Assembly: GCA_041494705.1 (NCBI GenBank)
Contig: JBGQBI010000001.1
Coordinates: 450,001 to 482,000, forward strand
From: Candidatus Methanoperedens sp.
GTDB lineage: Archaea > Halobacteriota > Methanosarcinia > Methanosarcinales > Methanoperedenaceae
Direction of reading: 5' to 3'
Length of the DNA stretch: 32,000 bases
Both the position numbers and the translations under genes were made by a program. A model generated the notes under the pieces. That model was not told where the DNA came from, did no database searches, and saw only the letters and a list, made by a program, of their open reading frames with translations. Shown piece after piece: positions 9,206-27,600 of the stretch (the stretch's first letter is position 1; every line of letters starts with the position of its first letter).

Positions 9206-9238
9206 CTATTTACTAATCAAATTTCCATGCGCAATGGA

Positions 9239-10033
9239 CTATGGCAGGTATCTTTTCTTTTCAGGGTTGCTGACCGAATGATTATATGGTGGCGGGGGAA
9301 GAATGGTAATATTTACAATGGTATCTGTATGACATCCTTCGCATGCCCAGTACCCTCTTGAAATGAAACCGCTTGAGCCGTTTGCATTGCCCGGCGTTCG
9401 CCCGAATGTTTCGCCTATTCCATAGTTTGAGGACAGATTGCTTGCCTGCAGATAAAATGCCTGGTGTGCGTTTGAAAGGCTTAAATTGTACCCGGCTGCC
9501 GTAATATTGGAGAAACTCCCGAGAATCAGGGGGCTGTTATCGGAATAAACCCTGTTGCCGTGACACCTGTCATCATCGCATACCCTGACTGTTGCCCCTG
9601 TATGCGTAGTTGCGCCTGCACCGAAGAGGGAAGCATTATGGCACAGCATGCATATTTCCACGCCATCTATTTGCCCGTTCCTGTTCACGTCAAGGCTGAC
9701 ATTGGCAGTTTCAAAGGGATTGCTTGAGTTATACCAGACTGTTCCATTCCACGTCCATAGAGAACCATCATATGCGGTTATCGAGCCGTTATAGGCTATT
9801 CCTCCGAGTGAAAGATATGTGGTATAATTAGTATTTCCCGCCGCAGCTTTATGTTTTTCATAAACATATCCGCTGTGTTCAACCTGCGATAATATATCAG
9901 AATGGCATTTCTCGCATGAAACACCCATCCCGCTGTAGAAAGTGTGCTGCCCTGCAAAAAGCGAGACCGTGTTCGGCATCACGTATAAACCGAATACCAT
10001 CAAAGCAAAATATAACAGGATTTTCTTATTCAT
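9239..10033 (-). CDS. Small membrane-anchored or secreted multihaem c-type cytochrome (3 CxxCH + 1 C-x4-CH)
   Basis: The ORF track extends to 10072. I prefer the ATG at 10033 (MNKKILLYFALMVFGLYV...) because it follows GGTGAT and lies 4 nt after the upstream stop. Motifs: CEKCH, CMLCH, CDDDRCH, CEGCH. N-terminal hydrophobic helix. Confidence 0.8.
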   Translation of the reverse strand: MNKKILLYFALMVFGLYVMPNTVSLFAGQHTFYSGMGVSCEKCHSDILSQVEHSGYVYEKHKAAAGNTNYTTYLSLGGIAYNGSITAYDGSLWTWNGTVWYNSSNPFETANVSLDVNRNGQIDGVEICMLCHNASLFGAGATTHTGATVRVCDDDRCHGNRVYSDNSPLILGSFSNITAAGYNLSLSNAHQAFYLQASNLSSNYGIGETFGRTPGNANGSSGFISRGYWACEGCHTDTIVNITILPPPPYNHSVSNPEKKRYLP

Positions 10034-10037
10034 ATCA

Positions 10038-10475
10038 TCACCCCGAACTGTTTGCAAAGAATTGTTTTGCATGCCTGTACAGGGTCGCTGTGTCGCTGGT
10101 TATGTAATGGGCGGACTGGTTTATGCCACTAATATTTACGCTACCGACCTGATGTATCGTGATGTTGCCGTCGTCTTCGTAATTTGAATGGCAGTTTGTA
10201 CAGTAGATATTCTTCGTAAGGTTGTGCGCTGCATTAAGATTGTATGTTTCATTGATATTCGGGTTATAACCATGGCATATACATCCCACATTGGCGTGGG
10301 CGCTCGCATTCACAATTGATACCTTGGTTGGATGACATTTGATGCAGAAATCCACTGCTGTTGTCTTATTTGTGTAAATGGTATGGCTTCCTGAGAATAT
10401 CGCATACGTTGTAAACATGGAGGCGGCTAATAATATCCCAAAGATTGCAAACAATAACAATATTTTCTTATCCAT
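10038..10475 (-). CDS. Small membrane-anchored or secreted c-type cytochrome (2 CxxCH)
   Basis: 145 aa with N-terminus MDKKILLLFAIFGILLAASMF, paralogous to the N-terminus of the downstream gene. Motifs: CIKCH and CTNCH. The start is preceded by GAGGT, which overlaps the stop of the 1514-aa gene (TGAGGTAAATATG). Confidence 0.75.
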   Translation of the reverse strand: MDKKILLLFAIFGILLAASMFTTYAIFSGSHTIYTNKTTAVDFCIKCHPTKVSIVNASAHANVGCICHGYNPNINETYNLNAAHNLTKNIYCTNCHSNYEDDGNITIHQVGSVNISGINQSAHYITSDTATLYRHAKQFFANSSG

Positions 10476-10482
10476 ATTTACC

Positions 10483-13400
10483 TCATGAATATGTCTTGTC
10501 CGGATATGTATGGCAATAATTACAATCTATAGTCTTATTGTAACCATAAGTGGCTATTGCGTTGTTATACAATGCCGAATCATGGCAAACGGTGCAGTCG
10601 GTGATATTTAAAACGTTCGTTCCATTGTAATTATACGGTATACTTGTTATGTTATGCCTGTAGTCGCTTCTCTTATCAGCCGGAATTGGAATCTGCTGCA
10701 CCACAGCATGGCAGTCCTCGCATGCTTTTCTCGCGCCGGTATTATTGTGCCCTTTGGTATGGCAGTCCTCGCATGCCAATGAACCGTGCGGGCTGCTGTT
10801 GAACATGGTTGAATTGACATATTTATCAGGTTTGTTTACACTGCTGCCGTTCATGTAGTCGTAGTTGAAGTGGCAGCTTGTGCATAACCCTGTGCTTATA
10901 TTATGCACAAATTCTTTTATATTGTCAGTAGACTGTGATTTACTATGGCAGCCCTTGCATGTGGAATCGTTATAATCAGGTGTCAGGGAGTGGTTATAAT
11001 AGCCGCTCACATTGTAAGGCGAATAGGAGGAGGAGTTTGTAATCTCAGGAGGCACTGAAAGATTGGCGCCCGTAAAGGCCAGAGTCATGTTAATGTAGTT
11101 CTTTCCGTTGTTGGAATAGCCCAGATAGTGGCATCCTGCACACCAGTTGCCATTACTGGTAATAGATGAATTCATAATGTTGCTCCCGCTCCAGTTGGAA
11201 GGTTTCCCCAGGCCTGTCGCATTATGCCTTGCGTCGCCGTGGCAATAATCGCACATGCTCTGCTGGCTGGTATTTGTCCAATACCCCTGCTGCGTGCCGT
11301 TCCAGAAAGAACCATTCAACGGGTTATCGCCGTGCTGGACTGTGGAGACTTTTGGAGGCTTATTTGAAAGAATTAAATCCAATGTATTTTGCTGGTGGCA
11401 ATCGGTGCAATTTACAGCCGTCTGGTTCGCAGTAGTGTAGTTTCCATTGGGCTGGCTATTGGGCTGGAGATAGGTCATTGGATGGATATTTGTCTTATTT
11501 GGACCTGTATGGCATTCAGTGCAATTGACCGTATTGTTGTGCATTTCTTTATATGTCGTCACTGCTCCGGTATAATTTGTGGTTCCATTTGATGTATTCA
11601 GCCCATGACAACCCAGGCAATATGAGCTATTATACAGTGTGATGTTAATATCCGGTTTAATTAATTGAGCACTATGCAGCGATGCATTTGTACTATTGTG
11701 GCATTCGCTTACGCTGCACGACGGGCTGGAGGAATTATATCTCAGGCTGTGGTTGGATATGCTTCGATTCGCAACATCCTGGAATACACCGTTGAATTCA
11801 CCTGTGCTGTTGCTGTTATGGCAATAAATACAATAATCATAACTCCCTGCAGTCTTTCCAAAGTTTGACCTGTTAGCGCCGTAATGGTAGAAGCTCGTGT
11901 TTCCTCCATTGACCCCTATTCCGTCGCTTGCATACGAGCCGTAATCCGTATCATTATTGGGTATTCTCATCCCTGATATGTTCTCATTCTCATGACATCC
12001 TATACATGAAGCGAGATCACTTGTCTTATTATCCAGCGCCCTGATATTTGTCCCGTTCCTGTAATGATTGGATATAATCGTTGCATTGTATGCTCCTGCA
12101 TTGCTTCCATTCGCAAGATGGCAGTCCGTGCAGGTGTAGGGCGTGTCTCTCTTATCCGGGTGGGTGTTGTTAGCTACTACGTAGCCGCTTGAGTTGTGAC
12201 ATGCCCAGCAGCTTGCGTTTATGCCATAGCCCGAAGCGTTGTTGCTGTTTATGTTTGCATGCACGGATATGCTGAAATTCGCGCCGTCTATGTAATGCAG
12301 GCCGGTGAAGTTCTGGGGATTGGAGTTATTATGGCAGTCAAGGCAGCCGGGACCGCCGCCGAGTACCACTTCGTTTGAATGGAAATCTACCGGCATGCTC
12401 TGGTTTCTGGTATGACAGGTATAGCACGAATTGTTGCTTATTGCGTATCTGTTCCCGAACATGTTGCTGGCGTTTACCTGCATTGCATTGCCCCATCCAT
12501 TTCTTATTGTTTCAATGCTCTGGTTGTGGCAGAACAGGCAGTTGGTGGTGTTGGGCATGCGGTCTATGGGGACTGTCCAGTGAGGTGGATCGTACTTGCC
12601 AACTGGTACAGAAGCATCGTTATACTGTGCATAGTAACCTCCGAAATTAGACTTGTTGAAATAGGGGGCTGCGTGACACGTTCCTTCTCCTGTGACTGCG
12701 TTGTAACTATAGCAGGTGGTAGAGTATGTTGCAGTGCCGCCCTGCGAGGGTACGCTTACATTAGTGCCCGTTATGTTGGAGTAATTGATATGGGAATAAA
12801 CATAGGGCAATGTATCATTTATGTCGCTCCTCAATGAATAGAAAGTGGTCCGGTTCGGGCCGGTGAAGAGACTGGTGGTGTTGGGGAGGTGGCAGTTCTC
12901 GCACAGTTTGACGCTCTGGAGGTTCGTTGCGATCGTGCCGGAGTTTGCTGAACCGTGGCAGGCATAGCACGGCTCGGAATCGCTGGGAACTGAGTTTGAT
13001 TCGTTGAAGTCATCCTGTTCCCAGTCAAAACCACGATCGTACGTAAGGGATGGGACGTCAATACCGCCGTGGATTGAATATGAATAGAACCACGGCTGAG
13101 AGTGGAATGTGTCGTTTGCGTTCGTGGATTTATTATGGCAGTTGCCACAGTCCTGGCTTTTTGCGGGATGTCTTGTGAGGTTGGCGTACCATTCCGTTGC
13201 ATTTGCAGGGGATTTGTGGCACAGCGAGCAGTTGGTGCTGTTTTTGATAAGGCTGGTGTTGGTGGCGTAGTGGGATATATTGGAATAGATTGCATCTATA
13301 GCGTCACCACCACTTATATAAAAACCACTCGTATTAAAACCGCCCATGCTTTTTATGTGGCAGGCGGCGCAATCTACCGAAGAGTTCAAGTCTGATGTAA

Positions 13401-15027
13401 TTTTGTAACCCAAACCTGCTGTGACTTCAATGGTATAATTATACGGTATGTGGTTGTATATTTTCCTCGCACTTAGGTCATTAATCCTGTCTGCATCGGT
13501 GTAGGTGAGGTTGTAGGTCGCATTATGGCATGCAACGCAGCCGGTTATTATTATTGTTGTGTTAAACTCTGTGCCGTTGGTATGGCATGCCCAGCAGGCT
13601 TTGTTCACAGGATCTGATAAAAGATTTGTTTTGTTTGCAAGATGGTTTAGATTTTGATGAGTTGCATTCGAGGACGAGTTCATTTTAGAAACATCCACTT
13701 TAGCTATCGAGTTGTTTGTGGTATTCGACACATCATGACATTTAACACAATCAGAAATATCCCCTGTGAGGTGAACTATCCCACTCTTTTTCACAAGCGA
13801 TTCCTGTCCTGTTATCGCAAAAGGGGACAGCGAACCTGTGCCGGCGCTTAACGTGCTATTTGTAATGTCCCTGATGGTTTCAAGCATCTCCCATTGTGTA
13901 ACATTCCAGTGATAGACTACAAGCGTATTTTCATTTACATTGTTGAGTTCGGCTTTGCTGTAGTGTATAGTTACTTCTGCTGATGAAAATGATATATTCT
14001 CCGCGCTAATCTCCACAAATTTTACAACCTTTCCCGGAACCGGAACTGGCACGGGGTTTTTCTTCCCGAAATCATCAAGAATGACTTTTCCTTTCCCGTG
14101 GACTGAAGCATTTTCCAGCTTCAGGGCGGCATTTTTTGTGGGGATTGCATCAATTTTAAAGGTTTTTGGATTATCCGGTGCTGCGCTGGCTACGGGTAGA
14201 AAAAAATCCAGAATTGAATAAAATATCACTGCCGGCTCGGTGATAATCGGGAAAGCCAGCCCGATTAGACCTGAGTTGTTTACCTTACGATAAGATTTGA
14301 CCAGCGAATTGTTTTCAAATATCTCTACAGTTGAATTGACAAGAGAACCCGATGTATCTATGACATTGATGTCCCACTCCGGAGAAGGAGCCACAATCGC
14401 AAAGACTGACAAAGAGTTCACCGTCGTGCCCAGGATATTATTTACCGCATCGATTTTTGTTGGCAGTTCGTTCCATACCTGCATAGCGCCATCGTACTTG
14501 TAAATAGTAAGGTTATTCACATCCAGTCCGCTCACTTCCGCATCCGTGTATTTTATTGATATATCGGCGTTAGAAAAGGAAACGCCGCTGGAATTGACTT
14601 CAACGTACTTTACCGGCGTCCCGGGCGCGGATACATTTACGCTCCCGGGCTGGTTGATACCGTAATTTTCCAGTACTACCCTTCCTTTTGGCGAATCACC
14701 TGAAATCCGAAGATTGATTGATATGCCCTTGGTTGCAAAATCATCATAACTGATTATAGTGCCAGGGATTCCGTGCCAGCTTATAAGATTGACATCCGGT
14801 TTTGGAGGGCCGCTTGATACCCCATCTCCGCTTAAAGATATTGCGCCCGTTAACGGATTTCCTGCACTGTCTGTGAATGTTATCTCGCCGCTTGTTTTTT
14901 GCGCTTCGGTATGTGTAAGTATTGGAGGAAAATACAATAAAGCCGCAGCTATGCCTGATAAAACTACAAACACAAGTATTATGAGCCTGATATTAGAGAG
15001 GCCTGCCTTATCTCTTAAAACATCCAT
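10483..15027 (-). CDS. Giant multihaem c-type cytochrome (1514 aa) with N-terminal anchor and two S-layer-type (PGF-pre-PGF-like) beta domains
   Basis: N-terminal TM/signal IRLIILVFVVLSGIAAALLY. A non-haem region (aa ~45-410) contains two related ~100-aa domains. From aa 427 on I hand-counted 26 CxxCH, plus CSVSECH (C-x4-CH) and CYSYNAVTGEGTCH (C-x11-CH). Extremely Asn/Ser/Thr rich. Confidence 0.9.
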   Translation of the reverse strand: MDVLRDKAGLSNIRLIILVFVVLSGIAAALLYFPPILTHTEAQKTSGEITFTDSAGNPLTGAISLSGDGVSSGPPKPDVNLISWHGIPGTIISYDDFATKGISINLRISGDSPKGRVVLENYGINQPGSVNVSAPGTPVKYVEVNSSGVSFSNADISIKYTDAEVSGLDVNNLTIYKYDGAMQVWNELPTKIDAVNNILGTTVNSLSVFAIVAPSPEWDINVIDTSGSLVNSTVEIFENNSLVKSYRKVNNSGLIGLAFPIITEPAVIFYSILDFFLPVASAAPDNPKTFKIDAIPTKNAALKLENASVHGKGKVILDDFGKKNPVPVPVPGKVVKFVEISAENISFSSAEVTIHYSKAELNNVNENTLVVYHWNVTQWEMLETIRDITNSTLSAGTGSLSPFAITGQESLVKKSGIVHLTGDISDCVKCHDVSNTTNNSIAKVDVSKMNSSSNATHQNLNHLANKTNLLSDPVNKACWACHTNGTEFNTTIIITGCVACHNATYNLTYTDADRINDLSARKIYNHIPYNYTIEVTAGLGYKITSDLNSSVDCAACHIKSMGGFNTSGFYISGGDAIDAIYSNISHYATNTSLIKNSTNCSLCHKSPANATEWYANLTRHPAKSQDCGNCHNKSTNANDTFHSQPWFYSYSIHGGIDVPSLTYDRGFDWEQDDFNESNSVPSDSEPCYACHGSANSGTIATNLQSVKLCENCHLPNTTSLFTGPNRTTFYSLRSDINDTLPYVYSHINYSNITGTNVSVPSQGGTATYSTTCYSYNAVTGEGTCHAAPYFNKSNFGGYYAQYNDASVPVGKYDPPHWTVPIDRMPNTTNCLFCHNQSIETIRNGWGNAMQVNASNMFGNRYAISNNSCYTCHTRNQSMPVDFHSNEVVLGGGPGCLDCHNNSNPQNFTGLHYIDGANFSISVHANINSNNASGYGINASCWACHNSSGYVVANNTHPDKRDTPYTCTDCHLANGSNAGAYNATIISNHYRNGTNIRALDNKTSDLASCIGCHENENISGMRIPNNDTDYGSYASDGIGVNGGNTSFYHYGANRSNFGKTAGSYDYCIYCHNSNSTGEFNGVFQDVANRSISNHSLRYNSSSPSCSVSECHNSTNASLHSAQLIKPDINITLYNSSYCLGCHGLNTSNGTTNYTGAVTTYKEMHNNTVNCTECHTGPNKTNIHPMTYLQPNSQPNGNYTTANQTAVNCTDCHQQNTLDLILSNKPPKVSTVQHGDNPLNGSFWNGTQQGYWTNTSQQSMCDYCHGDARHNATGLGKPSNWSGSNIMNSSITSNGNWCAGCHYLGYSNNGKNYINMTLAFTGANLSVPPEITNSSSYSPYNVSGYYNHSLTPDYNDSTCKGCHSKSQSTDNIKEFVHNISTGLCTSCHFNYDYMNGSSVNKPDKYVNSTMFNSSPHGSLACEDCHTKGHNNTGARKACEDCHAVVQQIPIPADKRSDYRHNITSIPYNYNGTNVLNITDCTVCHDSALYNNAIATYGYNKTIDCNYCHTYPDKTYS
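13807..14691 (-). repeat. Two copies of a ~100-aa beta-sandwich domain (archaeal S-layer / PGF-pre-PGF-like) within the 1514-aa cytochrome
   Basis: Copy 1 (14389-14691) reads GRVVLENYG...PVKYVEVNSSGVSFSNADISIKYTDAEVSGLDVNNLTIYKYDG..WNELPT...LSVFAIVAP. Copy 2 (13807-14097) reads GKVILDDFG...VVKFVEISAENISFSSAEVTIHYSKAELNNVNENTLVVYHWN..WEMLET...LSPFAITG. Confidence 0.6.
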
Positions 15028-15191
15028 TTTTTTGACCCTGGTTTTCTACATTGTTTTCATTCCAATCCTATTTTCCTATCACCTTAATTGTTATTTATGC
15101 GCGTTCAAAATAAATAGGTTTACATGATTTTAATTGAATGAACATAATTATCAATCAGGAACCTGGCTTTTGGTTGTATTGAATGGCATTA

Positions 15192-16028
15192 TCATGACGT
15201 TAAATAATCCGTATGACGCCCGCTATATACATACCCGACACCGAATGCGGAAAATGCAAGTATGAAGATGCTGAAAATGATTAGCCATGCAATCCTTTTT
15301 CCGGTCCATCCCGCATTCATCCGCAGGTGCAGGCAAATCCCGTATGTGAACCATGAAATCAAAGACCATGTCTCGATGGGGTCCCAGCCCCAGTACCTCC
15401 CCCATGTCTGGTTTGCCCATATAGCGCCTGCTGCTATCATGATAGTAAGGGCGAAAAATCCCAATGCCACGAAACGATACATAAGATCGTCCATTGTTCG
15501 CAAGTCGGGCAGCCTGTCGTAAAATGAATCCTGGACTCCGGTATTTAAGTGCTTCTCTTTCAATATATAAAGAGCAGCAATGCCTGCCGCTACCATTACT
15601 GACCCGAAGCCAAGACTTGCAAAACCCACATGGACTATCAGCCAGTAACTCTGGAGAGAAGCCGGTATCATCTGGATATCCCTCGAATAAGTCGAACCTA
15701 TAGCCATCATCAAAAAGGATGCGGGCAGCACTATAAATCCTGCAATCTTTATCTTTTCATATTTTTGCTGCGCGAGCAGGAATATAACTACGGAAAACCA
15801 TGCATATTTTGATAAAACCTCGTACATACTGATGTAGGGACCGTGCCCTGTTTCTATCCACCGCAGGGCTATGGAAACGCTGTGGAACAACAAGCCGATT
15901 AGGGCGCTGCTGACTGCAAGATTTATTCTTTCTTCTTTCTTGAAAACAAGGCAGTATAAGTAAACAGCCGAACTGAGCGCATAAAGCATTGCAGCGGCCA
16001 CGTACATAATCCATTCAGTCTGTCCCAT
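15192..16028 (-). CDS. ccsA: Cytochrome c biogenesis System II haem-handling protein CcsA/ResC
   Basis: 278-aa polytopic membrane protein with the tryptophan-rich WWD-type motif WGRYWGWDPIETWSLISW followed by a conserved His (CLHLR). Confidence 0.9.
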   Translation of the reverse strand: MGQTEWIMYVAAAMLYALSSAVYLYCLVFKKEERINLAVSSALIGLLFHSVSIALRWIETGHGPYISMYEVLSKYAWFSVVIFLLAQQKYEKIKIAGFIVLPASFLMMAIGSTYSRDIQMIPASLQSYWLIVHVGFASLGFGSVMVAAGIAALYILKEKHLNTGVQDSFYDRLPDLRTMDDLMYRFVALGFFALTIMIAAGAIWANQTWGRYWGWDPIETWSLISWFTYGICLHLRMNAGWTGKRIAWLIIFSIFILAFSAFGVGYVYSGRHTDYLTS

Positions 16029-17415: not shown

Positions 17416-17542
17416 TATTTTATCTTCCTGGCTTATTGTTTTTCTAATGTATTACGTTGTTCCATAGAATTGATGCGCATCTCACTATACCCTTGATAAG
17501 TAGATATAAATAACTTTGCAGATGATGTAAACGTAAACTAAA

Positions 17543-18010
17543 ATGACGCCTCTAAATAAAATAATCGTCCTGATTGCCCTGGGTTCAGTTCTCGTTTTAT
17601 CGGCTGCCTGGTGGGATTCGCAATCAGGAAACAATTCAGCTTTTATCAAACTTGGCGGTGTTTCATTTCATACATCAATAGAACCGGGAATCACAGAGGC
17701 AAAGAACTTAAGCAAACCTGTTTTCCTGTATTTCAGGTCAGAAACGTGTTACTGGTGCATAAGATTTGAAGATGAAGCCCTGTCTGATAAAAGGGTCATC
17801 GATAAACTCAATAAAAATTTTGTTCTTATATCGATAGATACATTCAAACAAAAAAATGTTTCTCTCAATCTCAATGTACGAAATACCCCGTACATGATTT
17901 TCTTTACAAAAGACGGCGAAGAGATATCAAGAATCCCGGGCTACCTGCAAACTGACGATTTCCTGGTAAAATTAGATTCCGTATCTGAAAACCTCAACCG
18001 GAGCTCTTAG
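17543..18010 (+). CDS. Membrane-anchored thioredoxin-fold protein with CYWC active site (ResA/CcsX-like candidate)
   Basis: 155 aa with an N-terminal TM IIVLIALGSVLVLSAAWW, then PVFLYFRSETCYWCIRFEDE (CxxC in thioredoxin context). Transcribed divergently from resB. Confidence 0.7.
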   Translation: MTPLNKIIVLIALGSVLVLSAAWWDSQSGNNSAFIKLGGVSFHTSIEPGITEAKNLSKPVFLYFRSETCYWCIRFEDEALSDKRVIDKLNKNFVLISIDTFKQKNVSLNLNVRNTPYMIFFTKDGEEISRIPGYLQTDDFLVKLDSVSENLNRSS

Positions 18011-19454: not shown

Positions 19455-19482
19455 TTGGTTTCTTTGAATACCGGTATGATAA

Positions 19483-22437
19483 TTATATTTTGTGTTTCTT
19501 CCAGAACCATAGTGCAACTATTCCTATTACCAACGAAAATGCAGCTATGTAGGTTAAATATGGTTTTGTTACTATTTTAACAATCTCTTTGCCATGAAAA
19601 CTTTTTAATTCTCCTTCAACATGGCATCCCCAGCAATCCTTATTTCCAATATTACTATGTTGCGAATCCGAAGGCAGGGCTCTGGGATTCCCCCATGCTT
19701 TTCTTATAGTTTCATTTTCCTGGATATGGCAGAAAACGCAATTTTTTGAATCCGGCATGTAATCAACAGGAGAATTCCAGTGGTAAGGGTCGCCCTTGTT
19801 AAATAATGTGCCTGTATAATTTGTATTGAAGGAAAAATAACCGCCTGCTTTTGCTTTATTCCCGAACGTCACGCCATGGCACGAACCCTGGCCGGTTGCT
19901 GCATCAAATCCGAAGCAGGAAGACCTTGTATTACCTAAAGAAGACTGGTCTGTCACATTGATGGGAGAATTATTGTAATGGGAATATACCACCGGGATAT
20001 ATTTTGTAATATCGGGCCGCACGTTAGCAAGGGGACTTAGCTCCGGGTTTACTTTTACATGGCAGTCTTCACATACATTCAATTTCGGCGATACATGCTC
20101 CGTCATTTTTACGTGGCACACCGGGCAGCTTTCATTCAGCCTGTCAGCTCCTTTTTCATTGGCATTATCCCCTTCCCAGTCAAAACTATCATGCATGAAT
20201 CCGGGTGAAAATGGCTTTTCCGGATGTTTACCGTTTGAAAAAGTAGTATTGTAATGACAGTTTTCACAATTGTTGCCAGTCGTTCCATGCCTTATTTTAT
20301 GGCATGAGGTACAATCTTCGGCCGCTGAATAAGAAGTAGAATTCACACCTGGCAATTTGTCTGCGGCTGATAGTTTCGGGGTTGTATCGCTATTATTATA
20401 TTTGCCGCCGGAATTATCCATTGTTGTCGGGAGAGACATGGTTATCCTGACCACAGCGGTTTTCATTGTTTCTGCGTTACCCGCATTATCCAAACTGAAA
20501 TATTTAATGGTATGTCCGCCTTCTTCATTAAAAGTAAGCTGTATATATGGTAAATAAGATACCTGCCCGACTCCATCCACTATGTAGTTTATTGCTTCAA
20601 CACCTGAGATATTATCAGAAGCTGTAATATTGAGAGTTACATTTGCAGTGTGCCACGTACTGTCTGAGTTATCGACCGTCTGTGGAGGGATATTATCAAT
20701 CCTGATAGTGGCAGTATGAGGTTGTTCAGCGTTCCCTGCATTATCCACACTATAATACCTGATAGTATGATTGCCTTCCCCGCTTATGGAAACGGTTGTG
20801 CCTTTCAGAGAGTATGATGTAGGAATTGGGCCATCAACGGTGTAATAAGTTTCCATTATACCTGAGCCTGCATCGCTGGCAGTAAGCATGACCGCAACGC
20901 TGCTATTATACCATTGACCATCAGCATTGTCTGACGTAAGAGGTGGGGTTTTGTCGATTTTCACCTGGCTCGGTGCTGTCTTTATCCCTTCGACATTGCC
21001 TGCTTTATCCACGCTGAAATATTTGATAGTATAAATCCCTTCATTTGAAATACTAAATGTTGTTCCTTCTGTGGAGTTTACTGTTGGTTCTGTTCCATCA
21101 ATAGTATAGTACGTGGCTGCCACCCCGCTTTCATTATCTTTCGCTGTCAATGTAACTGTAACGCTGCTATTATGCCATTGCCCGTCCACATCATCCGTGG
21201 TTGCGGGAGGTATGGTGTCCGCTGGTTTGTTATAGTAAGTATAGGCATAGATGTTCCCATTGGAATTCCCCAATATAATCTCCTTGTTGCCGTCCCCTTC
21301 CAGGTCCGCTATAGTCGCCGATGTAAACATATCATTAGCGACCCTTGTATTTTCAAGGACATTTCCCTGGTTATCCCATATATACAGGTTCCCGTATGCG
21401 TCGCCGGCTGCAATTTCCATCTTCCCGTCGCCGTTTATGTCTCCAAGCGCGAGATTACTGTCAACCCTTCCGATAGAAGAAAATTCTTTCAGGATGCCAT
21501 TCCTTATCAGATATATTTTTTTCTCATCATTTGAGGCGATTGCCGCACTAATCACGCCTGTGCCGTCTATATCGCCCGTGCCAGGAGATGCTAGGTTACT
21601 TTTTATGTTAAATTTATAAAGCTGATTACCGCTATTATCGAAAATAGATACTCCCGATGACGAAGTCACAATAATTTCATTCCTACCGCTCCCCTCAAAG
21701 TCACCGAACCTTGCGCTTCTCGCATCCCCTCCGAGATCCCTGCTCCAGAGAATTGTTCCCATAATACTATTTACTTTTATTACCCAGATTTTCCCATCTA
21801 TTGGATTTGCAGAATTGATATCCTGGGTTAAAATAACAGCCTCATCGATTCCATCCCCGTCGATATCGCCAACCGGGATTGGCGCCCTGTAATTCACAGC
21901 CTTTCCAAGCTCAAGATACCAGAGTTTATTTCCAGAGCTGTCGAATGCATACACACCTGTAGCCTGGGTTATTGATCCCAAAGACGACCCCGGAGCCGCC
22001 CCGGTAAGAATTATTCCTTCTTTTGTAATTGACGGGGAGGAAATAAGCAGATATTTTCCCGGCGTTATATTCGCAATATTATTACCCGCAGTATCCCAGA
22101 TATAAAAAGTGGCATCCGAGTAACCGGGATTACCATAAGAAATTATTTCAAGCCTGCCGCTGATATTGGCTACCAGAGGAGTTCTTGCTTCATCTGCCAG
22201 ATTTATTCCGCCGGTATTCTCCCAGTCAAGGACGCCCATATAATTGAACACTTTAATCATCCTGTTATCGGGCGCCGCTATTATCTCAGGTTTCCCGTCT
22301 CCGTCTATATCCTGTACAACTAAAAGGGATTTAATTGGGCTACCAGTATTGACAGGGAAACCTGCGTGTTGTTCTATCTTGGCAGATACTGTTGTTATCA
22401 TTAGAAACACTGTTAAAAATAAAACTAGTTTATTCAT
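19483..22437 (-). CDS. FG-GAP beta-propeller / triple Ig-like repeat / hexahaem cytochrome c fusion protein with C-terminal TM anchor
   Basis: The preferred start at 22437 (MNKLVLFLTVFLMITTVSA) is preceded by GGAGGGAGGAG and lies 1 nt after the upstream TAA. Six or more FG-GAP-like Ca-binding loops are present (DIDGDGKPEII, GDIDGDGIDEAVI, GDFEGSGRNEIIV, GDIDGTGV, GDINGDGKMEIAAG, ADLEGDGNKEIILG). Then come three ~88-aa repeats, then CTSCH, CENCH, CPVCH, CEDCH, CVFCH, CWGCH plus CFGFDAATGQGSCH. The C-terminus is IAAFSLVIGIVALWFWKKHKI. Confidence 0.9.
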   Translation of the reverse strand: MNKLVLFLTVFLMITTVSAKIEQHAGFPVNTGSPIKSLLVVQDIDGDGKPEIIAAPDNRMIKVFNYMGVLDWENTGGINLADEARTPLVANISGRLEIISYGNPGYSDATFYIWDTAGNNIANITPGKYLLISSPSITKEGIILTGAAPGSSLGSITQATGVYAFDSSGNKLWYLELGKAVNYRAPIPVGDIDGDGIDEAVILTQDINSANPIDGKIWVIKVNSIMGTILWSRDLGGDARSARFGDFEGSGRNEIIVTSSSGVSIFDNSGNQLYKFNIKSNLASPGTGDIDGTGVISAAIASNDEKKIYLIRNGILKEFSSIGRVDSNLALGDINGDGKMEIAAGDAYGNLYIWDNQGNVLENTRVANDMFTSATIADLEGDGNKEIILGNSNGNIYAYTYYNKPADTIPPATTDDVDGQWHNSSVTVTLTAKDNESGVAATYYTIDGTEPTVNSTEGTTFSISNEGIYTIKYFSVDKAGNVEGIKTAPSQVKIDKTPPLTSDNADGQWYNSSVAVMLTASDAGSGIMETYYTVDGPIPTSYSLKGTTVSISGEGNHTIRYYSVDNAGNAEQPHTATIRIDNIPPQTVDNSDSTWHTANVTLNITASDNISGVEAINYIVDGVGQVSYLPYIQLTFNEEGGHTIKYFSLDNAGNAETMKTAVVRITMSLPTTMDNSGGKYNNSDTTPKLSAADKLPGVNSTSYSAAEDCTSCHKIRHGTTGNNCENCHYNTTFSNGKHPEKPFSPGFMHDSFDWEGDNANEKGADRLNESCPVCHVKMTEHVSPKLNVCEDCHVKVNPELSPLANVRPDITKYIPVVYSHYNNSPINVTDQSSLGNTRSSCFGFDAATGQGSCHGVTFGNKAKAGGYFSFNTNYTGTLFNKGDPYHWNSPVDYMPDSKNCVFCHIQENETIRKAWGNPRALPSDSQHSNIGNKDCWGCHVEGELKSFHGKEIVKIVTKPYLTYIAAFSLVIGIVALWFWKKHKI
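20422..21219 (-). repeat. Three tandem ~88-aa (~264-nt) Ig-like domain repeats, plus a truncated fourth copy immediately downstream
   Basis: Each unit reads PP.T.D..DG.W.N..V.V.LTA.D..SG...TYYT.DG......G.T..IS.EG.HTI.Y.S.DNAGN.E. The copies are diverged at nucleotide level. A partial fourth unit (PTTMDNSGGKYNNSDTTPKLSAADKLPGV) is fused to the haem domain. Confidence 0.75.
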
Positions 22438-22438
22438 T

Positions 22439-25400
22439 TTACCTGTTTCTCCTCCCTCCAGTGCTTGGTTGAACATGGCAGCCCGTTGAGAAGCATCCGC
22501 TACTGCCTACATACATGCCTATATTTTTATCATGAAGTGTCATATTAACCTGCGGATTGGAATTATGGCATGAAGACTGGCAGGAAATCCCTGTGCTGCC
22601 CATTATATTATGACTAGATGGTAAGATTCTGGCATTTCCATAATCCTTCCCCACTGCACCTGCGTTATGGCATTTATTGCATCCAAAATTTGTTCCCGTT
22701 GTGGCTCTCGTATCGGGCAGTATGCCTGTTACTGCTGATGGCATACTTTCACCGAGTGTCCTGCTAACCACGTAATGCGATACCGAGGCGTTCTTTAATT
22801 TTTCCGCGGCATAGCCGCCATAATTAATGTTCTGGTTTGCTACTAAACTATTATTATGACATGAAACGCACGTCCTGTTAGAGTCCACGTTATCGTAAAC
22901 CACCGTGCCTGAAAATACCGAACCCGGATAATGCCGGTACACTAAAGTGGCATTGAAATTATTATTGACATGACAATACTCGCATGGTTTTGGATACTGA
23001 TAATTAACCGGATGCTTTTCCGGCTGGGTGCCATTGCCATGACATGCCCAGCAGGCTTTGTTTATCGGGTCCAATACTGAGGTGTTGGTTGCATTACTGT
23101 TAAGATTCGCATGCACGCCAAGCTTCATCGCACTAAAGTTTATCTTCCTGTCGTCCGGCGCCCCGTTTCCTGATACATCGTGACATGAAACACAATCAGG
23201 TCCGCTCGCGCTGGGTTTAAGATTGTGGCTAAAGTCAAGCGAAGTGGCGCCTGTTTTGAGCGCGCTGCCGTGGCAATTTTTACATTTAATATCATCATAT
23301 CCCGAGGAAAGCGCACCTGAATGGTTGTAGAAAGCTGTGCCATCCCTGGAAGTAAGCGGGACAAGTCCGCCCATGTTTAACACTTCAGGAGGCACCGGAT
23401 TGAGAAGGTTCCCCGAGTAATTGGGCGCATTCTTGTAATGGCAGTTGGCACACCAGTAACTTCCGTTTAAGCTCTGGTTGTTTGTATTGTTCCCCATGAT
23501 CTTTGTGATATTGCCCAGAGCTGATGCATTATGGAGGGTAATACCATGGCAGTAAACACATGCGCTCTGCGTGTCGCTGTTTGTCCAGTAACCCTGCTGC
23601 GTGCCATTCCACAGTGAACCGTTATAAGGATCGGCGCTGTGATTCATGGGCGCGGGGATTTTCGGGGCAGTGCTGAAGTTGCCAGGACCGCTCTGGTGGC
23701 ATGTGGTACAGTTTACTGCATTTGTCCTTGATGTGCTGAAGTTGGAGCCGTCCTGCTGGAGGTACCGCACCGGATGGATGCTCCTGCTATCGTTGAGATG
23801 GCAGTCTGTACAATTTACGGCATTATTGTGTGGTTGTTTAAAACCAGTTACTGCTCCTGTATAATTTGTGCCGCCGGTGCCGTTGTTGCCGTGACAGCTC
23901 AAGCATAAACGGTTATTATTCACGGGCGACGCCGGCTTGTAAAGTGTACTGTTGTGAATTCTGCCAGCCTGGGTTGCATGGCAGTCCGTACAACCCGGAT
24001 TGGAGGAGGGATAGCCGGATGAGTGGTTTGCTATCGTCTTGTTTGCATTATCGATGAACGGAAATACTGTTGTCTGGTTGTTGTGGCATTTATTACAGTA
24101 ATCGTTTGTTCCCTGTGCAGGGTAATCAGTGCGTTTCTTGCCATAATGACTTGTGCTATTGCTTCCGCCGTTTTCACCGCCGTAAACGCCTGCTGCGCCG
24201 TCAGGGTCAGGGTTTGTGCCCAGCATCATCTCAGTCCTATTATGGCAATCATAGCACGTGGTCACCGCCTCCGTTCTTATACTGGTGCCGTTCCAGTAGT
24301 GCTGGGTTACGTATGGTATTATTGCAATAAGATCTCCATACATATTATGGCATACTGCACAGCTTATACCTATGTGCCTCGTAACATGGCAATCCACACA
24401 TCTGTAGGGTGTCTTGTAATTGGATGGATGACTACTTCCCGGTTCGTTGCCGTTGCCGTGGCATGCCCAGCATTTCTTGTTCTCTGCGGGCAGGGTTGTT
24501 GTGGTTCTGCTGTTCAGGTCACTGTGGATGGCGTTTACATCGTTCATCGCACTGATATTTACAAGTTTTCCTGCACCGGCTGAGCCTCCGATGTTGTGGC
24601 AGCCTGTACAGTTGGCTCCTCCTGCCTGTCCTATACCCACATTATGGCTAAAGTTGAGAGACGTTGCCCCTGCATTGAGGTTATTATCATGGCAGTTCTT
24701 GCACGTAGCATCATCATAGCTTGTTGAGATTGCACTTGAATGGTTGTAGAATGAAGTTCCATCTTTGGAAATTACAGGGACAAGCCCGCTCTGGTTTAAC
24801 ACCTCAGGCGGCTGCTGAGTTAACAGGTTTCCTCCATAATCGGGTGCAGTCTTATAATGGCAGTTTGCACACCATCTACTTGTGGTAAGGTCCTGATTTA
24901 AACTATTCGTCCCTTTGACGTTGCTTACGCTACCCAGTGCTGAGATGCTGTGAAGAGTCGATAGACCGTGGCAGTAATAACATGCGCTCTTCTGGCTTGT
25001 ATTATCCCAGTAAGCGGATTGCAAGCCATTCCAGAGGACGCCTGCATATGGGTCTGTGCTGTGGTTCAAAGGTACTGGAATCTGTGGCGGGTTCCTGCCT
25101 GTGTAGTTGCCTGCCTTGGGCTGCGCTTTCAGAGCAGCGAAGAACGAAGCGTTCTGGTGGCAATTGGTGCAGTTGCCTCTTGCTGGATTTGGATTATTAT
25201 GATTCAAATCTACATACGTGGCGTTCTGTGCAAACACCTGTATGTCATGCACATCGTCGCTGTGGCATAGTGTGCAGTTCACGCCGCCCGATGTGGTGTT
25301 GCTTGAGTTGTGCTCGGTATTGCTTGTGTGGCAGGTTTTACATTGAGAATCTTCTGTATTACTATTCCTTATAAATCTCTGGGTTTCATCAGGTTTAGTG

Positions 25401-27532
25401 ATATTATGCATCGGACCGTGGCAGATGATGCAGGGGACTGTTGAGTTGGGTGTATGGAAGGTTCCATTAAAGTCAGTGCCATTGTTTTCAGAATATTCGC
25501 TATGTGCAATTGCTTTATTGGAATTATTAAGAGTGGATTTGCCTGAGATATCCGACCTGTTTGCAGGAGTGTGGCAGACTGTTGTATTGAAACATGAACC
25601 TATGACAGCATTTGTACTATGGACTGAACTGGCTTGATGGCAGTTTGGGTCACTGCAAGTGAGATTTCTGTGAACATCTTTGGTATTAATCCCATGGTTT
25701 GCACCACCGGAAGTAAGGGCACCTGGATTGCCATCAAATGATTGGTGACAGTTTGTACAGTTCAGAGTTGCACTTGTGTGTGTACCAGTTTGAGATATTG
25801 TCTCCCTTCCGCCCATATAAGGCGAATTTTTGGCCATCGTCCCGGCAGGATTCGAACCTGTATGGCCACTGTTACATCCTGACATCCCGCATCCCCACCA
25901 GTTGTAGATAAAGCTTGTATTATCGTTAAGATTGCCGTTCGACGCTTTGACCGTCCAGTTCCCATAATAGTTCCTTGCATCCATGTCAAAGCTGAAGTTG
26001 GCAAGACCATATGCATTGGTTGTAGCATTTATTCTTGCCGGAGTATATTCTGTCCCGTTGGGCATGTATAAATTGAATGTTATGACCCTTCCGCTCAAAG
26101 GTGAACCTTTATCATCTATGAAAAAGGCTGTTGCATTGATATTGGTATTTATACCCGTCCAGGAATTAGCGGTGTGAGTTGTTGTCGGTTTAAAAAATCC
26201 TGTACCATTTGAACTGGCCGTTGTCCAATCGTCCAGTATCACATAGCGGTTGGTGGCAACCAGTATTTTCCCCCCAGCCGAAGGCGGCGTGGGCGTAAGC
26301 AAGATATTAACATTGCTCATCGCAGCGCCGCTTACTGTTCCTGTGGTTGAGTTGTCGTTATAACCCGGCTTACTGGCTGTTATGATATAAGTGCCGTTGC
26401 CTACCGTAAAATTGTAGTAGCCCGTGCCGTCCGTACTGGTGGAAAGGCTCGTGTTCGTTGTAACTGCGGCGCCCGTTATCGCCTGTCCGTTTGAGGCATT
26501 GGTAACGTAGCCTGATAATTGATAAGTCGGCACAGGTGTTAGCGAGATGTTTGCAGTGGTATTATGAGCGCCGTTAATTGCTACGTTAATCGAATTTACA
26601 CCATAACCTGTGAGGCTTGCATTAATAACATATGTCCCATTGGATAAGCCCGTGAAATTATAGAAGCCGGTAGCATTTGTTGTCGTGGTCAGGCTTGTGT
26701 TTGTCTGAACTGTGGCACCGCTTAGAGGAAGACCGCTGGATTTGTTGGTAACATAGCCTGAAATATTGTAGAGTGTGGTATCGTTTATAGTGATATTCGA
26801 TATATAATTATTGAAATACAAACTCACTGTCCCGGCAGTACCCGTAGTCGTGTTTATTTGAACCATCAGCCTGTGCCCTTTCGGAACAATATATGTAGTA
26901 TAATTGATTCGAGAGCTGTAGTTTCCCTGGGTGGTTGCGGTTGGAGTTAGATTTACCTTGTTGCCAATACGGGTTTTTGCGCCGTTTGCAGGATCATATT
27001 CGAATAGTGATACGTTTAGCCGGTTATTTGTAGTACTCGTAGCCTTCCAGCTTATATTAAAAGTGGTATTTCCAGTGATTAAGGTATCATTGGTATAATT
27101 AAAAGGGAGATAAAACCTGAAAAGCTCGTATTCGGTAGTGGTGGAAGTGGTAGTAAAACTTATATTTGCTACTGTGCCCATGGTTCCGTTTTTCAATAAA
27201 TTCTTGTAAGGTCTTTGTGCCAGCGGGACTATAGTGTTTGTTGCGGAATAATTTGTCATTCCATCCGCCCCCACTGACACATTGCCTGCGGTGTTGTTGT
27301 TTTCCAGATAATAAATTTTCACATCCGCCGCTGCCGGCTGAACCATAGCAAACATAACGCCGGTTATAACTAGAACCAGAATCACAGCTAGTCTTGCCCG
27401 TTTTATCCGCTTTTTACAGAAACCTGCATTCATTTTAGAAGCCATACCACCATTTTCAATAGCAACTGCTATGCCATCAATTCGTTTTCTATTCTGAAGC
27501 ATCATGAATTGATGTCCTATCCAATTCATCAA
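22439..27532 (-). CDS. Giant multihaem c-type cytochrome (up to 1697 aa) with N-terminal beta-sandwich and CarboxypepD_reg-like domains
   Basis: The signal-like segment KKRIKRARLAVILVLVITGVMFAMVQPAAA-DV suggests the true start is Met30 (27445) or Met34 (27433, preceded by GGTGGT). The non-haem region runs to aa ~590. Beyond it I hand-counted 26 CxxCH plus CSDPNCH, CFNTTVCH, CQSSCH and CFSTGCH. Confidence 0.9.
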   Translation of the reverse strand: MMNWIGHQFMMLQNRKRIDGIAVAIENGGMASKMNAGFCKKRIKRARLAVILVLVITGVMFAMVQPAAADVKIYYLENNNTAGNVSVGADGMTNYSATNTIVPLAQRPYKNLLKNGTMGTVANISFTTTSTTTEYELFRFYLPFNYTNDTLITGNTTFNISWKATSTTNNRLNVSLFEYDPANGAKTRIGNKVNLTPTATTQGNYSSRINYTTYIVPKGHRLMVQINTTTGTAGTVSLYFNNYISNITINDTTLYNISGYVTNKSSGLPLSGATVQTNTSLTTTTNATGFYNFTGLSNGTYVINASLTGYGVNSINVAINGAHNTTANISLTPVPTYQLSGYVTNASNGQAITGAAVTTNTSLSTSTDGTGYYNFTVGNGTYIITASKPGYNDNSTTGTVSGAAMSNVNILLTPTPPSAGGKILVATNRYVILDDWTTASSNGTGFFKPTTTHTANSWTGINTNINATAFFIDDKGSPLSGRVITFNLYMPNGTEYTPARINATTNAYGLANFSFDMDARNYYGNWTVKASNGNLNDNTSFIYNWWGCGMSGCNSGHTGSNPAGTMAKNSPYMGGRETISQTGTHTSATLNCTNCHQSFDGNPGALTSGGANHGINTKDVHRNLTCSDPNCHQASSVHSTNAVIGSCFNTTVCHTPANRSDISGKSTLNNSNKAIAHSEYSENNGTDFNGTFHTPNSTVPCIICHGPMHNITKPDETQRFIRNSNTEDSQCKTCHTSNTEHNSSNTTSGGVNCTLCHSDDVHDIQVFAQNATYVDLNHNNPNPARGNCTNCHQNASFFAALKAQPKAGNYTGRNPPQIPVPLNHSTDPYAGVLWNGLQSAYWDNTSQKSACYYCHGLSTLHSISALGSVSNVKGTNSLNQDLTTSRWCANCHYKTAPDYGGNLLTQQPPEVLNQSGLVPVISKDGTSFYNHSSAISTSYDDATCKNCHDNNLNAGATSLNFSHNVGIGQAGGANCTGCHNIGGSAGAGKLVNISAMNDVNAIHSDLNSRTTTTLPAENKKCWACHGNGNEPGSSHPSNYKTPYRCVDCHVTRHIGISCAVCHNMYGDLIAIIPYVTQHYWNGTSIRTEAVTTCYDCHNRTEMMLGTNPDPDGAAGVYGGENGGSNSTSHYGKKRTDYPAQGTNDYCNKCHNNQTTVFPFIDNANKTIANHSSGYPSSNPGCTDCHATQAGRIHNSTLYKPASPVNNNRLCLSCHGNNGTGGTNYTGAVTGFKQPHNNAVNCTDCHLNDSRSIHPVRYLQQDGSNFSTSRTNAVNCTTCHQSGPGNFSTAPKIPAPMNHSADPYNGSLWNGTQQGYWTNSDTQSACVYCHGITLHNASALGNITKIMGNNTNNQSLNGSYWCANCHYKNAPNYSGNLLNPVPPEVLNMGGLVPLTSRDGTAFYNHSGALSSGYDDIKCKNCHGSALKTGATSLDFSHNLKPSASGPDCVSCHDVSGNGAPDDRKINFSAMKLGVHANLNSNATNTSVLDPINKACWACHGNGTQPEKHPVNYQYPKPCEYCHVNNNFNATLVYRHYPGSVFSGTVVYDNVDSNRTCVSCHNNSLVANQNINYGGYAAEKLKNASVSHYVVSRTLGESMPSAVTGILPDTRATTGTNFGCNKCHNAGAVGKDYGNARILPSSHNIMGSTGISCQSSCHNSNPQVNMTLHDKNIGMYVGSSGCFSTGCHVQPSTGGRRNR
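22967..23668 (-). repeat. Copy 2 of the ~235-aa six-haem module
   Basis: APKIPAPMNHSADPYNGSLWNGTQQGYWTNSDTQSACVYCH...WCANCHYK...PPEVLNMGGLVPL...CKNCH...CVSCH...CWACHGNG...CEYCHV. A partial third copy lies in the 1514-aa gene at about 10942-11361 (NGSFWNGTQQGYWTNTSQQSMCDYCH...WCAGCHY...CKGCH). Confidence 0.8.
24383..25093 (-). repeat. Copy 1 of a ~235-aa six-haem module duplicated inside the 1697-aa cytochrome
   Basis: NPPQIPVPLNHSTDPYAGVLWNGLQSAYWDNTSQKSACYYCH...WCANCHYK...PPEVLNQSGLVPV...CKNCH...CTGCH...CWACHGNG...CVDCHV is colinear with copy 2. Confidence 0.8.
26288..26770 (-). repeat. Two tandem ~80-aa carboxypeptidase-regulatory-like (CarboxypepD_reg / Ig-like) domains
   Basis: Copy 1 reads ISGYVTNKSSGLPLSGATVQTNTSLTTTTNATGFYNFTGLSNGTYVINASLTGYG...ISLTPVP. 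Copy 2 reads LSGYVTNASNGQAITGAAVTTNTSLSTSTDGTGYYNFTVGNGTYIITASKPGYN...ILLTPTP. Confidence 0.7.
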
Positions 27533-27536
27533 TTCG

Positions 27537-27600
27537 TTTTATAAACCTTAGTTAGTAACCCTTAATATAGTTTTGGTATAATTTAGGTATATTTATCCAG
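27537..27600 (-). promoter_or_regulatory. AT-rich candidate promoter region of the giant cytochrome operon (several TATA-like boxes)
   Basis: The minus strand carries GGATAAATATACC, AAATTATACC, CTATATTAAG and TTTATAAAA (27545-27537). The last box lies only ~5 nt upstream of the ATG at 27532, so if it is used, the real start codon must lie further downstream. Confidence 0.3.

Follow-up and report, generated by a model that had tools for sequence, protein, structure and literature searches.

Here we describe a 32,000-nt window of Candidatus Methanoperedens DNA (contig JBGQBI010000001.1, positions 450,001 to 482,000) in which the genes for ResB and CcsA, the two parts of a System II cytochrome c synthase, lie beside the gene for a class B, B12-binding radical S-adenosylmethionine (radical SAM) enzyme and amid five genes for multihaem c-type cytochromes. 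Comparison with related loci indicates that linkage of this radical SAM enzyme to System II and multihaem cytochrome genes is conserved not only in Methanosarcinales but also across several bacterial lineages, many of the bacterial and archaeal carriers being metal-respiring. As judged from sequence, System II and the class B enzyme form a conserved module that is found in both domains. The linkage is apparently undescribed, and it points to a likewise undescribed step in cytochrome maturation.

To survey the linkage, we used an alignment-based scan with the radical SAM protein across one genome per GTDB species. The scan returned 385 relatives, the best 80 of which (53–94% identical to the query) were analysed as loci, with neighbouring genes defined by mechanical calling of open reading frames (ORFs) and clustering. 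These 80 loci belong to Methanoperedens (20), other Methanosarcinales (4), Geobacterales/Desulfuromonadales (23), Nitrospirota (20) and Actinomycetota (8), with one each labelled Desulfarculales, Desulfobacteraceae, Planctomycetota, Elusimicrobia UBA5214 and unidentified bacterium. Cultured carriers are Geobacter argillaceus, G. hydrogenophilus, Geomonas silvestris, Geomonas limicola and Geotalea SG265. When only species-level loci flanked on either side by 8 kb or more were considered (n = 32), ResB and/or CcsA lay within 10 kb of the radical SAM gene in 26 (23 of the 27 bacterial loci), and 31 contained System II genes or else a cytochrome carrying four or more CxxCH motifs. Thirteen taxon labels are represented among the linked loci. 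CcsA shared the strand of the radical SAM gene in 50 of 51 cases, as did ResB in all 43, at median distances of 2.0 kb and 1.4 kb, respectively. The order of the genes differs, with radical SAM–thioredoxin–ResB–CcsA in Methanoperedens versus ResB–CcsA–radical SAM elsewhere, so that the linkage survives rearrangement.

No more than two further families besides CcsA and ResB were shared by over 20 loci: a LuxE-like enzyme that forms acyl-adenylates (25 loci, one or two per module) and a multi-histidine membrane protein of ~120 aa (38 loci), which has no Pfam match and a weak CopD-like hit in NCBIfam (E 0.0012). In bacteria, the operon typically runs cytochrome(s), ResB, CcsA, (second B12-radical SAM), (LuxE-like enzyme), (small membrane protein), radical SAM, cytochrome(s), in which the second B12-radical SAM protein is much more distant from the family of the window enzyme. 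Modules extended by the LuxE-like enzyme, the second B12-radical SAM and the small membrane protein include L007, L057, L078 and L085, among others; L057, a Methanosarcinaceae genome, carries the full set. The small membrane protein is retained in one Methanoperedens locus (L016). Hidden Markov models built from the 25 and 38 loci detected neither the LuxE-like enzyme nor the small membrane protein among six-frame ORFs of at least 40 aa in the window. At three loci of the Elusimicrobia UBA5214 type (L004, L005 and L009), CcsA stands among up to five radical SAM or B12-binding genes, one of them with a SPASM domain, in the company of Y1 transposases; ResB is ~9.6 kb away, and genes for 23-haem cytochromes, NHL-repeat and PorV-like proteins follow downstream.

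An earlier note on this DNA had made its proposal depend on whether related genomes keep the maturation and radical SAM genes together, and they do: the core of radical SAM enzyme, thioredoxin-like protein, ResB and CcsA is conserved across Methanoperedens. The close relatives L013 and L019 share a giant cytochrome, a propeller protein, a 6-haem cytochrome with a CX11CH motif, the radical SAM gene, a convergent thioredoxin gene, ResB, CcsA and a further giant cytochrome, while more distant Methanoperedens loci retain the core only, with different cytochromes or none within 10 kb (L025, L031 and L093). A reciprocal search on long contigs, starting from CcsA homologues, recovered the four-gene core in both loci examined, one of which has toxin–antitoxin genes inserted inside it. 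At L095, genes of toxin–antitoxin type (TumE; HEPN and nucleotidyltransferase) were seen between core genes, at 6254–6938 and 8986–9606, with a subtilisin-like peptidase after CcsA. Beyond Methanoperedens, the linkage occurs in an ANME-2 (anaerobic methanotrophic archaea) cluster archaeon, in which ResB, CcsA and the radical SAM gene are directly adjacent; no Archaeoglobales locus appeared among the 80 best radical SAM loci. The radical SAM–ResB–CcsA linkage is also kept in Methanosarcinaceae. In the ANME-2 cluster archaeon (L003/L033, 1–7559), the trio lies beside genes for MtrA/MtrH-like proteins and for folate one-carbon metabolism (FolD, SHMT and a pterin-binding protein); no cytochrome gene occurs in the 10 kb upstream, and the contig ends just past the radical SAM gene.

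Some Methanoperedens carry a second radical SAM copy. L023 and L025 both derive from the metagenome-assembled genome MnB_21 and are each ~82% identical to the window enzyme. Where two copies were seen, one sits in the thioredoxin–ResB–CcsA core and the other elsewhere. At L024 (11637–21461), the unlinked radical SAM gene is flanked on one side by a 6-haem CX11CH cytochrome and on the other by an ORF exceeding 3,274 aa, which contains 69 CxxCH motifs and runs past the end of the locus.

ResB and CcsA of the window constitute a bona fide, canonical System II cytochrome c synthase, because they retain the WWD motif and conserved histidines that align to solved CcsBA. CcsA scored 200.6 bits on TIGR03144 (cutoff 187.6), and its gene overlaps that of ResB by 14 nt. 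The WWD motif reads WGRYWGWDPIE, with a WGRYWGWD core identical to that of the solved CcsBA of H. hepaticus and B. thetaiotaomicron. His133, His234 and His272 align to the H. hepaticus CcsBA chain 7S9Y, at positions that we take to be the three haem-ligand histidines of its CcsA part (H761, H858 and H897). The motif and the three histidines are 98–100% conserved in 66 homologues, and CcsA thereby shows the WWD domain, the two external histidines and the transmembrane histidine of a System II protein. ResB has four hydrophobic segments, the last two of which are separated by a 220-aa loop, and shows the large extracytoplasmic loop and conserved transmembrane histidine expected of this family; His167 is conserved in 98% of 50 homologues. 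No sequence match to a solved structure in the PDB was found for ResB.

The thioredoxin-like protein resembles the C-terminal domain of DsbD (Thioredoxin_2/_7 type) and may take the part of ResA/CcsX as thiol reductase for the apocytochromes. Its gene was present in 13 of the 20 Methanoperedens loci, convergent in 11 of these 13, and in none of the other loci. The identities that the earlier note had assigned to resB/ccsA, the CYWC thioredoxin and the B12-radical SAM gene were all confirmed by Pfam and NCBIfam.

The radical SAM enzyme carries the cluster motif CTQKCTFC, in which C203, C207 and C210 are invariant in our alignment, and has no predicted signal peptide or transmembrane segment. 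Its B12-binding domain, CxxxCxxC core and predicted class B fold place it in class B; the AlphaFold 2 model (pLDDT 82.7) matches the folds of AprD4, TsrM, CysS, OxsB, TokK and MgmA. In a library of 1.8 billion representative proteins, the family is tight: nine full-length representatives scored 465–607 bits, followed by a drop to 345 bits or less. The first full-length proteins past this gap, P0134 and P0135, are 38% identical to the window enzyme and are genuine BchE proteins, with 770 and 761 bits on TIGR02026. The window enzyme matches the same model over its full length with 401.5 bits, and it and three family representatives (382–403 bits) all fall below the cutoff of 481.35; any other NCBIfam model gave at most 138 bits. 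Because its members score under the TIGR02026 cutoff while genuine BchE reaches 761–770 bits, the family is distinct from BchE and sister to it.

Between bacteria and archaea, the radical SAM enzymes are 55–64% identical, compared with 35–41% for the linked CcsA and 19–28% for ResB. Searches with the five window cytochromes (phmmer) returned no bacterial counterparts except a propeller match without haem motifs, and since none was found across the two domains, we rejected a cytochrome family common to all module neighbours. High conservation of the enzyme beside unrelated cytochromes fits a universal small-molecule substrate. Natural fusions join the radical SAM enzyme to a LuxE-like domain (P0127) and to a ligand-binding domain of the SRPBCC/polyketide-cyclase type (P0122). 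The 1,075-aa protein P0125 was set aside as a further fusion, its C-terminal part having no recognisable domain and possibly being a gene-calling artefact. A rough neighbour-joining tree, which carries no support values, places the archaeal enzymes in one clade nested among those of Actinomycetota and UBA5214, consistent with a single inter-domain transfer.

On this evidence, we favour, at somewhat better than an even chance, the reading that the locus encodes a dedicated System II synthase module in which the radical SAM enzyme would act on a tetrapyrrole before export. Because ANME-2d genomes are reported to hold an archaeal Ccm system (CcmABCEF and CcmH; PMC9012536), the System II module is, by analogy, probably an extra maturation line dedicated to the neighbouring large or unusual (CX11CH, CXCH and CX3-5CH) cytochromes. 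In the proposed sequence of events, the apocytochromes would be exported unfolded, the thioredoxin-like protein would hold their motif cysteines reduced, and ResB/CcsA would export haem and make the thioether bonds. The cytoplasmic radical SAM enzyme would act on the tetrapyrrole that CcsBA exports, either by modifying a haem side chain or by supplying a special haem anaerobically, and in many bacteria the LuxE-like adenylating enzyme would assist it. The finished cytochromes would most likely pass electrons from the membrane to extracellular acceptors, the membrane entry point not being encoded in the island; published work on Methanoperedens makes a role in extracellular electron transfer plausible. 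A tetrapyrrole exported by CcsBA is most plausibly the substrate because the enzyme is predicted to be cytoplasmic, its sister family acts on porphyrins, it is far more conserved than its protein neighbours and it is found fused to small-ligand domains. BchE itself acts on a porphyrin propionate side chain (PMC10114771, PMC13598231). A more specific version, in which the enzyme alters a haem side chain and CcsBA then exports and attaches a modified haem c to the cytochromes of extracellular electron transfer, is offered as a tentative possibility that may well fail. By analogy with BchE, the altered side chain could be a propionate, and in many bacteria the LuxE-like enzyme, the second B12-radical SAM and the small membrane protein would help.

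Several points weigh against the tetrapyrrole interpretation. Peptides, lipids and antibiotics are substrates of class B radical SAM enzymes as well, and the matches of the fold search were limited to generic members of this class. Some members of the family have no System II nearby, among them the second Methanoperedens paralogue (L023 and L024) and four Geobacterales loci. The LuxE-like and SRPBCC partners would fit a lipid substrate too, and the canonical haem-handling residues of CcsA do not by themselves suggest an unusual haem. CcsBA might simply be redundant with Ccm, our view of this genome being 32 kb wide. Finally, ORFs of the related loci were called mechanically, the radical SAM gene was the basis on which loci were picked, and related species are not independent samples.

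Two alternatives keep the enzyme within cytochrome maturation and give it another task. It might modify the apocytochrome polypeptide in the cytoplasm before export, by methylation or cross-linking in the manner of maturases of ribosomally synthesised and post-translationally modified peptides (RiPPs), leaving CcsBA to handle a modified protein. Many class B enzymes do act on peptides, the secondary NCBIfam matches are to RiPP C-methyltransferases and ApyD (116–130 bits), cytochrome genes directly abut the radical SAM gene in many loci, and the UBA5214-type loci add radical SAM/SPASM and further radical SAM genes beside CcsA. We nevertheless consider a polypeptide substrate unlikely: the adjoining cytochromes of archaea and those of bacteria come from unrelated families, whereas the enzyme remains 55–64% identical; its nearest family is BchE, at ~400 bits against no more than 138 for other models; the SRPBCC and LuxE-like fusions suggest a small ligand; and the partner cytochromes were not found to share any motif, CX11CH being limited to Methanoperedens. 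Alternatively, the enzyme could serve oxygen-independent haem biosynthesis or supply, oxidising or decarboxylating a propionate or the ring to yield ordinary haem b, so that normal haem would be attached. This would agree with the porphyrin propionate chemistry of the sister family BchE (PMC10114771, PMC13598231), with the anaerobic life and very large haem demand of all hosts, and with the canonical haem-binding residues of CcsA. Against it, a housekeeping step is not expected to track one CcsBA paralogue, to be duplicated or to gain LuxE-like ligases and B12-radical SAM paralogues. The host groups would moreover already have complete anaerobic routes of their own (Ahb in archaea; HemN and the protoporphyrin route in Geobacter), and we hold such a supply function to be distinctly unlikely.

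A different proposal was made in the earlier note, which saw in the island a complete, self-contained chain for extracellular electron transfer: small membrane-side cytochromes feeding two haem wires and a surface propeller-cytochrome, together with their own maturation genes. The cytochrome cluster and a haem-attachment core beside it stood up to analysis; the five cytochromes are anchored or secreted, offer 72 haem sites and are dense in N-glycosylation sequons, the same architecture recurs in the close relatives L013 and L019, and cytochrome-mediated extracellular electron transfer is reported to be experimentally established for Methanoperedens (PMC10542353, PMC10874420). What did not hold was completeness. 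No gene for a quinol-oxidising entry module was detected in the 32 kb (no cytochrome b, NrfD-like, Rieske or FeS oxidoreductase gene), nor was a CcdA/DsbD homologue found among the ORFs. Because it lacks a quinol/menaquinol dehydrogenase, cytochrome b, an NrfD-like protein and CcdA/DsbD, neither the electron-transfer chain nor the maturation pathway is complete within the window. An S-layer domain was not detected either, and the core occurs with other cytochromes or with none within 10 kb (L025, L031 and L093); the unit under selection is therefore the core and not the whole island. A self-contained chain thus strikes us as doubtful, if conceivable. That the radical SAM gene came to lie beside cytochrome maturation genes by chance or hitch-hiking, and belongs to an unrelated pathway, is hardly credible. 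B12-radical SAM genes are numerous in the host organisms and System II neighbours are missing for some family members, but linkage in 26 of 32 fully flanked loci from thirteen taxon labels and two domains, with a shared strand in 93 of 94 cases, compares with our estimate of a few percent for a random 21-kb window to catch one of the few ResB/CcsA pairs in a 2–5 Mb genome. The linkage also outlasts rearrangements and insertions, and recurrence in more than 20 loci is confined to CcsA, ResB, the small membrane protein and the LuxE-like enzyme.

Compared with known systems, the window synthase resembles System II (CcsBA/ResBC; H. hepaticus 7S9Y, B. thetaiotaomicron) in its four-segment ResB, WGRYWGWD core, three aligned histidines, overlapping genes and the nearby membrane-anchored thioredoxin-like protein. 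It differs in its archaeal host, in a thiol reductase of the Thioredoxin_7/DsbD-C type instead of the TlpA/ResA type, in the lack of CcdA in the window, and in a BchE-like B12-radical SAM enzyme as a conserved extra, to which bacterial loci often add the LuxE-like ligase and the small membrane protein. Dedicated haem lyases exist for unusual motifs, such as Wolinella CcsA1 for the CX15CH of MccA and NrfI for CXXCK. To our knowledge, none of these dedicated systems includes a radical SAM enzyme. A related arrangement is the CcmF2 paralogue that adjoins multihaem cytochrome (MHC) B of ANME (PMC9012536). As in these cases, the window places a maturation paralogue beside the special cytochromes it presumably serves, with the rare motifs CX11CH, CXCH and CX3-5CH. 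Unlike the CcmF2 case, its maturation genes are System II and not CcmF, and unlike the lyases for rare motifs, the core is shared with bacteria that have no CX11CH in the cytochromes next to it. With BchE, the radical SAM enzyme shares the B12-binding plus radical SAM architecture, a full-length match and, at 38% identity, the closest relationship outside its own family; the genomic partners are haem-attachment and cytochrome genes instead of bch genes. We know of no phototrophs among the hosts of the family.

Like the giant cytochrome clusters of Methanoperedens and ANME-2, the island encodes very large sequon-rich cytochromes with 26–30 haem motifs, non-cytochrome surface domains and lineage-specific paralogues. 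The earlier note had invoked giant cytochromes fused to S-layer-type domains as its context, which found no support here: no S-layer domain (DUF1608 type in the published ANME-2 clusters) was among the Pfam and NCBIfam matches of the giants, which contain PGF-pre-PGF, CarboxypepD_reg and MG2 domains instead. The window also lacks the adjacent genes for CcmF2, signal peptidase and menaquinol:cytochrome c oxidoreductase of those clusters. The giants consequently differ from ANME MHC-A/B, which are marked by S-layer fusion and a neighbouring CcmF2 (PMC9012536).

The literature we searched (open-access papers and bioRxiv) agreed with the earlier note that the combination of System II, thioredoxin and class B radical SAM is undescribed. 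A 2015 survey of ~300 archaeal proteomes did not identify System II in Archaea (PMC4429474), and the ANME comparative-genomics paper treats only Ccm, without the terms 'ResB', 'CcsA' or 'radical SAM' (PMC9012536). Within the same literature, we found no description of System II in ANME archaea or Methanoperedens, and no link of radical SAM, BchE or LuxE to ResB, CcsA, System II or multihaem cytochromes. Papers on electron transfer and lateral gene transfer in Methanoperedens mention neither ResB nor radical SAM, and reviews and primary work on BchE and tetrapyrrole radical SAM enzymes mention no such family. Regarding expression, we found no data for this locus, and the Methanoperedens electron-transfer papers examined contain no ResB, radical SAM or biogenesis entries. 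The NCBI pipeline names the Methanoperedens CcsA homologues 'CcsB'; their presence is therefore recorded in databases, and we found no discussion of it in print.

How dozens of haems are loaded onto cytochromes of at least 1,500 aa and tuned for long-range electron transfer is an open problem with relevance to methane oxidation, metal cycling and bioelectrochemistry. Archaeal cytochrome maturation has so far been described as Ccm-only, and this locus reveals a canonical System II synthase conserved across Methanoperedens. The highly conserved sister of BchE offers a concrete candidate for a missing maturation or haem-modification step, a lead that is testable since several carriers are cultured bacteria. 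If it holds, it would add a new modified haem c and a radical SAM-dependent branch of System II, present in Geobacterales, Nitrospirota, Actinomycetota and methane-oxidising archaea and exchanged between domains. If the haem is indeed modified, models of redox potential and structural interpretations of these cytochromes would need revision.

Table 1 Genes of the cytochrome island and its haem-attachment core, in window coordinates (position 1 is the first letter of the 32,000-nt window).
Feature	Coordinates	Strand	Motifs and matches
Small anchored cytochrome, 264 aa	9239..10033	-	3 CxxCH + one CX4CH, ~4 haems
Small anchored cytochrome, 145 aa	10038..10475	-	2 CxxCH + contracted CICH, ~3 haems
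Giant multihaem cytochrome, 1514 aa	10483..15027	-	26 CxxCH + one CX11CH (CYSYNAVTGEGTCH) + one CX4CH, ~28 haems
CcsA (NCBI model name 'CcsB'), 278 aa	15192..16028	-	PF01578 Cytochrom_C_asm; TIGR03144
ResB/CcsB, 466 aa	16015..17415	-	PF05140, E 3.7e-55
Membrane-anchored thioredoxin-like protein, 155 aa, CYWC	17543..18010	+	Thioredoxin_2/_7; N-terminal hydrophobic anchor
Class B (B12-binding) radical SAM enzyme, 486 aa	17994..19454	-	PF02310 B12-binding + PF04055 Radical_SAM
Propeller-cytochrome fusion, 984 aa (997 aa from upstream ATG at 22476)	19483..22437	-	6 CxxCH + one CX11CH
Giant multihaem cytochrome, 1697 aa from TTG start (1687 aa if start at 27502)	22439..27532	-	26 CxxCH + 4 atypical, ~30 haems

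All five cytochromes have at least two CxxCH motifs and are predicted to be exported, which assigns them to the multihaem c-type cytochromes; Pfam matches among them are to Cytochrome_C7, c3 and MtrC-domain families. A motif count on the translated ORFs reproduced the 63 CxxCH motifs that had been counted by hand in the earlier note (3, 2, 26, 6 and 26 in the order of the table), and its approximate nine atypical motifs proved to be exactly nine: four CX4CH, two CX11CH and one each of CXCH, CX5CH and CX3CH. This gives 72 putative haem sites in total (4, 3, 28, 7 and 30 per protein), with three cysteines outside motifs in all five proteins together. Because the other 18 ORFs of the window contain no CxxCH, the clustering is far beyond chance. 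Each cytochrome begins with an N-terminal hydrophobic segment, and the propeller fusion ends in a C-terminal transmembrane helix. In the other four, NxS/T sequons occur at 4.7–6.3 per 100 aa (93 in the 1697-aa giant and 96 in the 1514-aa giant) versus ~0.5 in cytoplasmic ORFs. This pattern of sequons and anchors fits secreted archaeal glycoproteins, and the cytochromes look extracytoplasmic.

The two giants are paralogous, sharing 34% identity along 680 aa; no sequence relatives of the cytochromes, the giants included, were found in the PDB. According to Pfam and NCBIfam, the 1697-aa giant contains two CarboxypepD_reg domains and an MG2 domain, and the 1514-aa giant a PGF-pre-PGF domain. The 984-aa protein combines an FG-GAP beta-propeller and three OmpL47-type/CHB_HEX_C domains with a C-terminal 7-haem domain, whose CX11CH motif is CFGFDAATGQGSCH. 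Propeller and 6-CxxCH cytochrome are fused in the window and in two identical assemblies, and are encoded by two genes in related species; relative to L013 (5909–9970) and L019 (6387–9972), residues 14–716 correspond to the first gene and 717–996 to the second without its signal peptide. CX11CH is a known rare haem motif (PMC11492766). Among the loci compared, it was restricted to Methanoperedens cytochromes and occurred in none of the bacterial loci, and it was therefore rejected as the common target of the module. The CICH of the 145-aa cytochrome (residues 65–68) has a canonical CxxCH motif on either side; each of the six cysteines in this protein is part of a motif, so that CICH may be a real haem site with a single-residue spacer.

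The island is chromosomal and not recently acquired. It lies in Candidatus Methanoperedens DNA, as indicated by radical SAM and CcsA homologues of 65–94% identity labelled Candidatus Methanoperedens or Methanoperedenaceae and by housekeeping genes on either side: Dph2, an rRNA methyltransferase, NIF3, polyprenyl synthase and Elp3 on one flank, and CofH-like, pterin-binding protein and MarC genes on the other. A recent foreign origin was rejected because the flanking genes are housekeeping genes and the GC content shows no obvious difference between island and flanks. An assembly artefact was likewise rejected, as window positions 14315–29454 and 13358–26650 recur with 100% identity in two independent public assemblies.

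All nine ORFs were present as the earlier note had located them, and the junctions TAA-A-ATG and TGA-GGTAAAT-ATG agree with its description. One correction concerns the thioredoxin-like gene, which is on the plus strand and convergent with the radical SAM gene, the 3' ends overlapping by 17 nt (17994–18010). Because it lies antisense between the radical SAM gene and ResB, the nine genes are not one operon. The starts of three genes are ambiguous by 10–13 codons: mechanical ORFs begin 13 codons further upstream for two of the genes (at 10072 and 22476), and a gene caller chose 22476 for the propeller-cytochrome and 27502, not 27532, for the largest cytochrome.

Elsewhere in the window, four consecutive plus-strand ORFs at 3164–6263 (128, 376, 132 and 363 aa) and a minus-strand ORF of 220 aa with six cysteines at 31202–31864 have no significant Pfam match. 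At the island edge, a 101-aa ORF (27646–27951) aligns only to the first ~55 of the 361 positions of an aminotransferase class I/II Pfam model and is probably what remains of a gene; the identical assembly L001 likewise has a gene call here.

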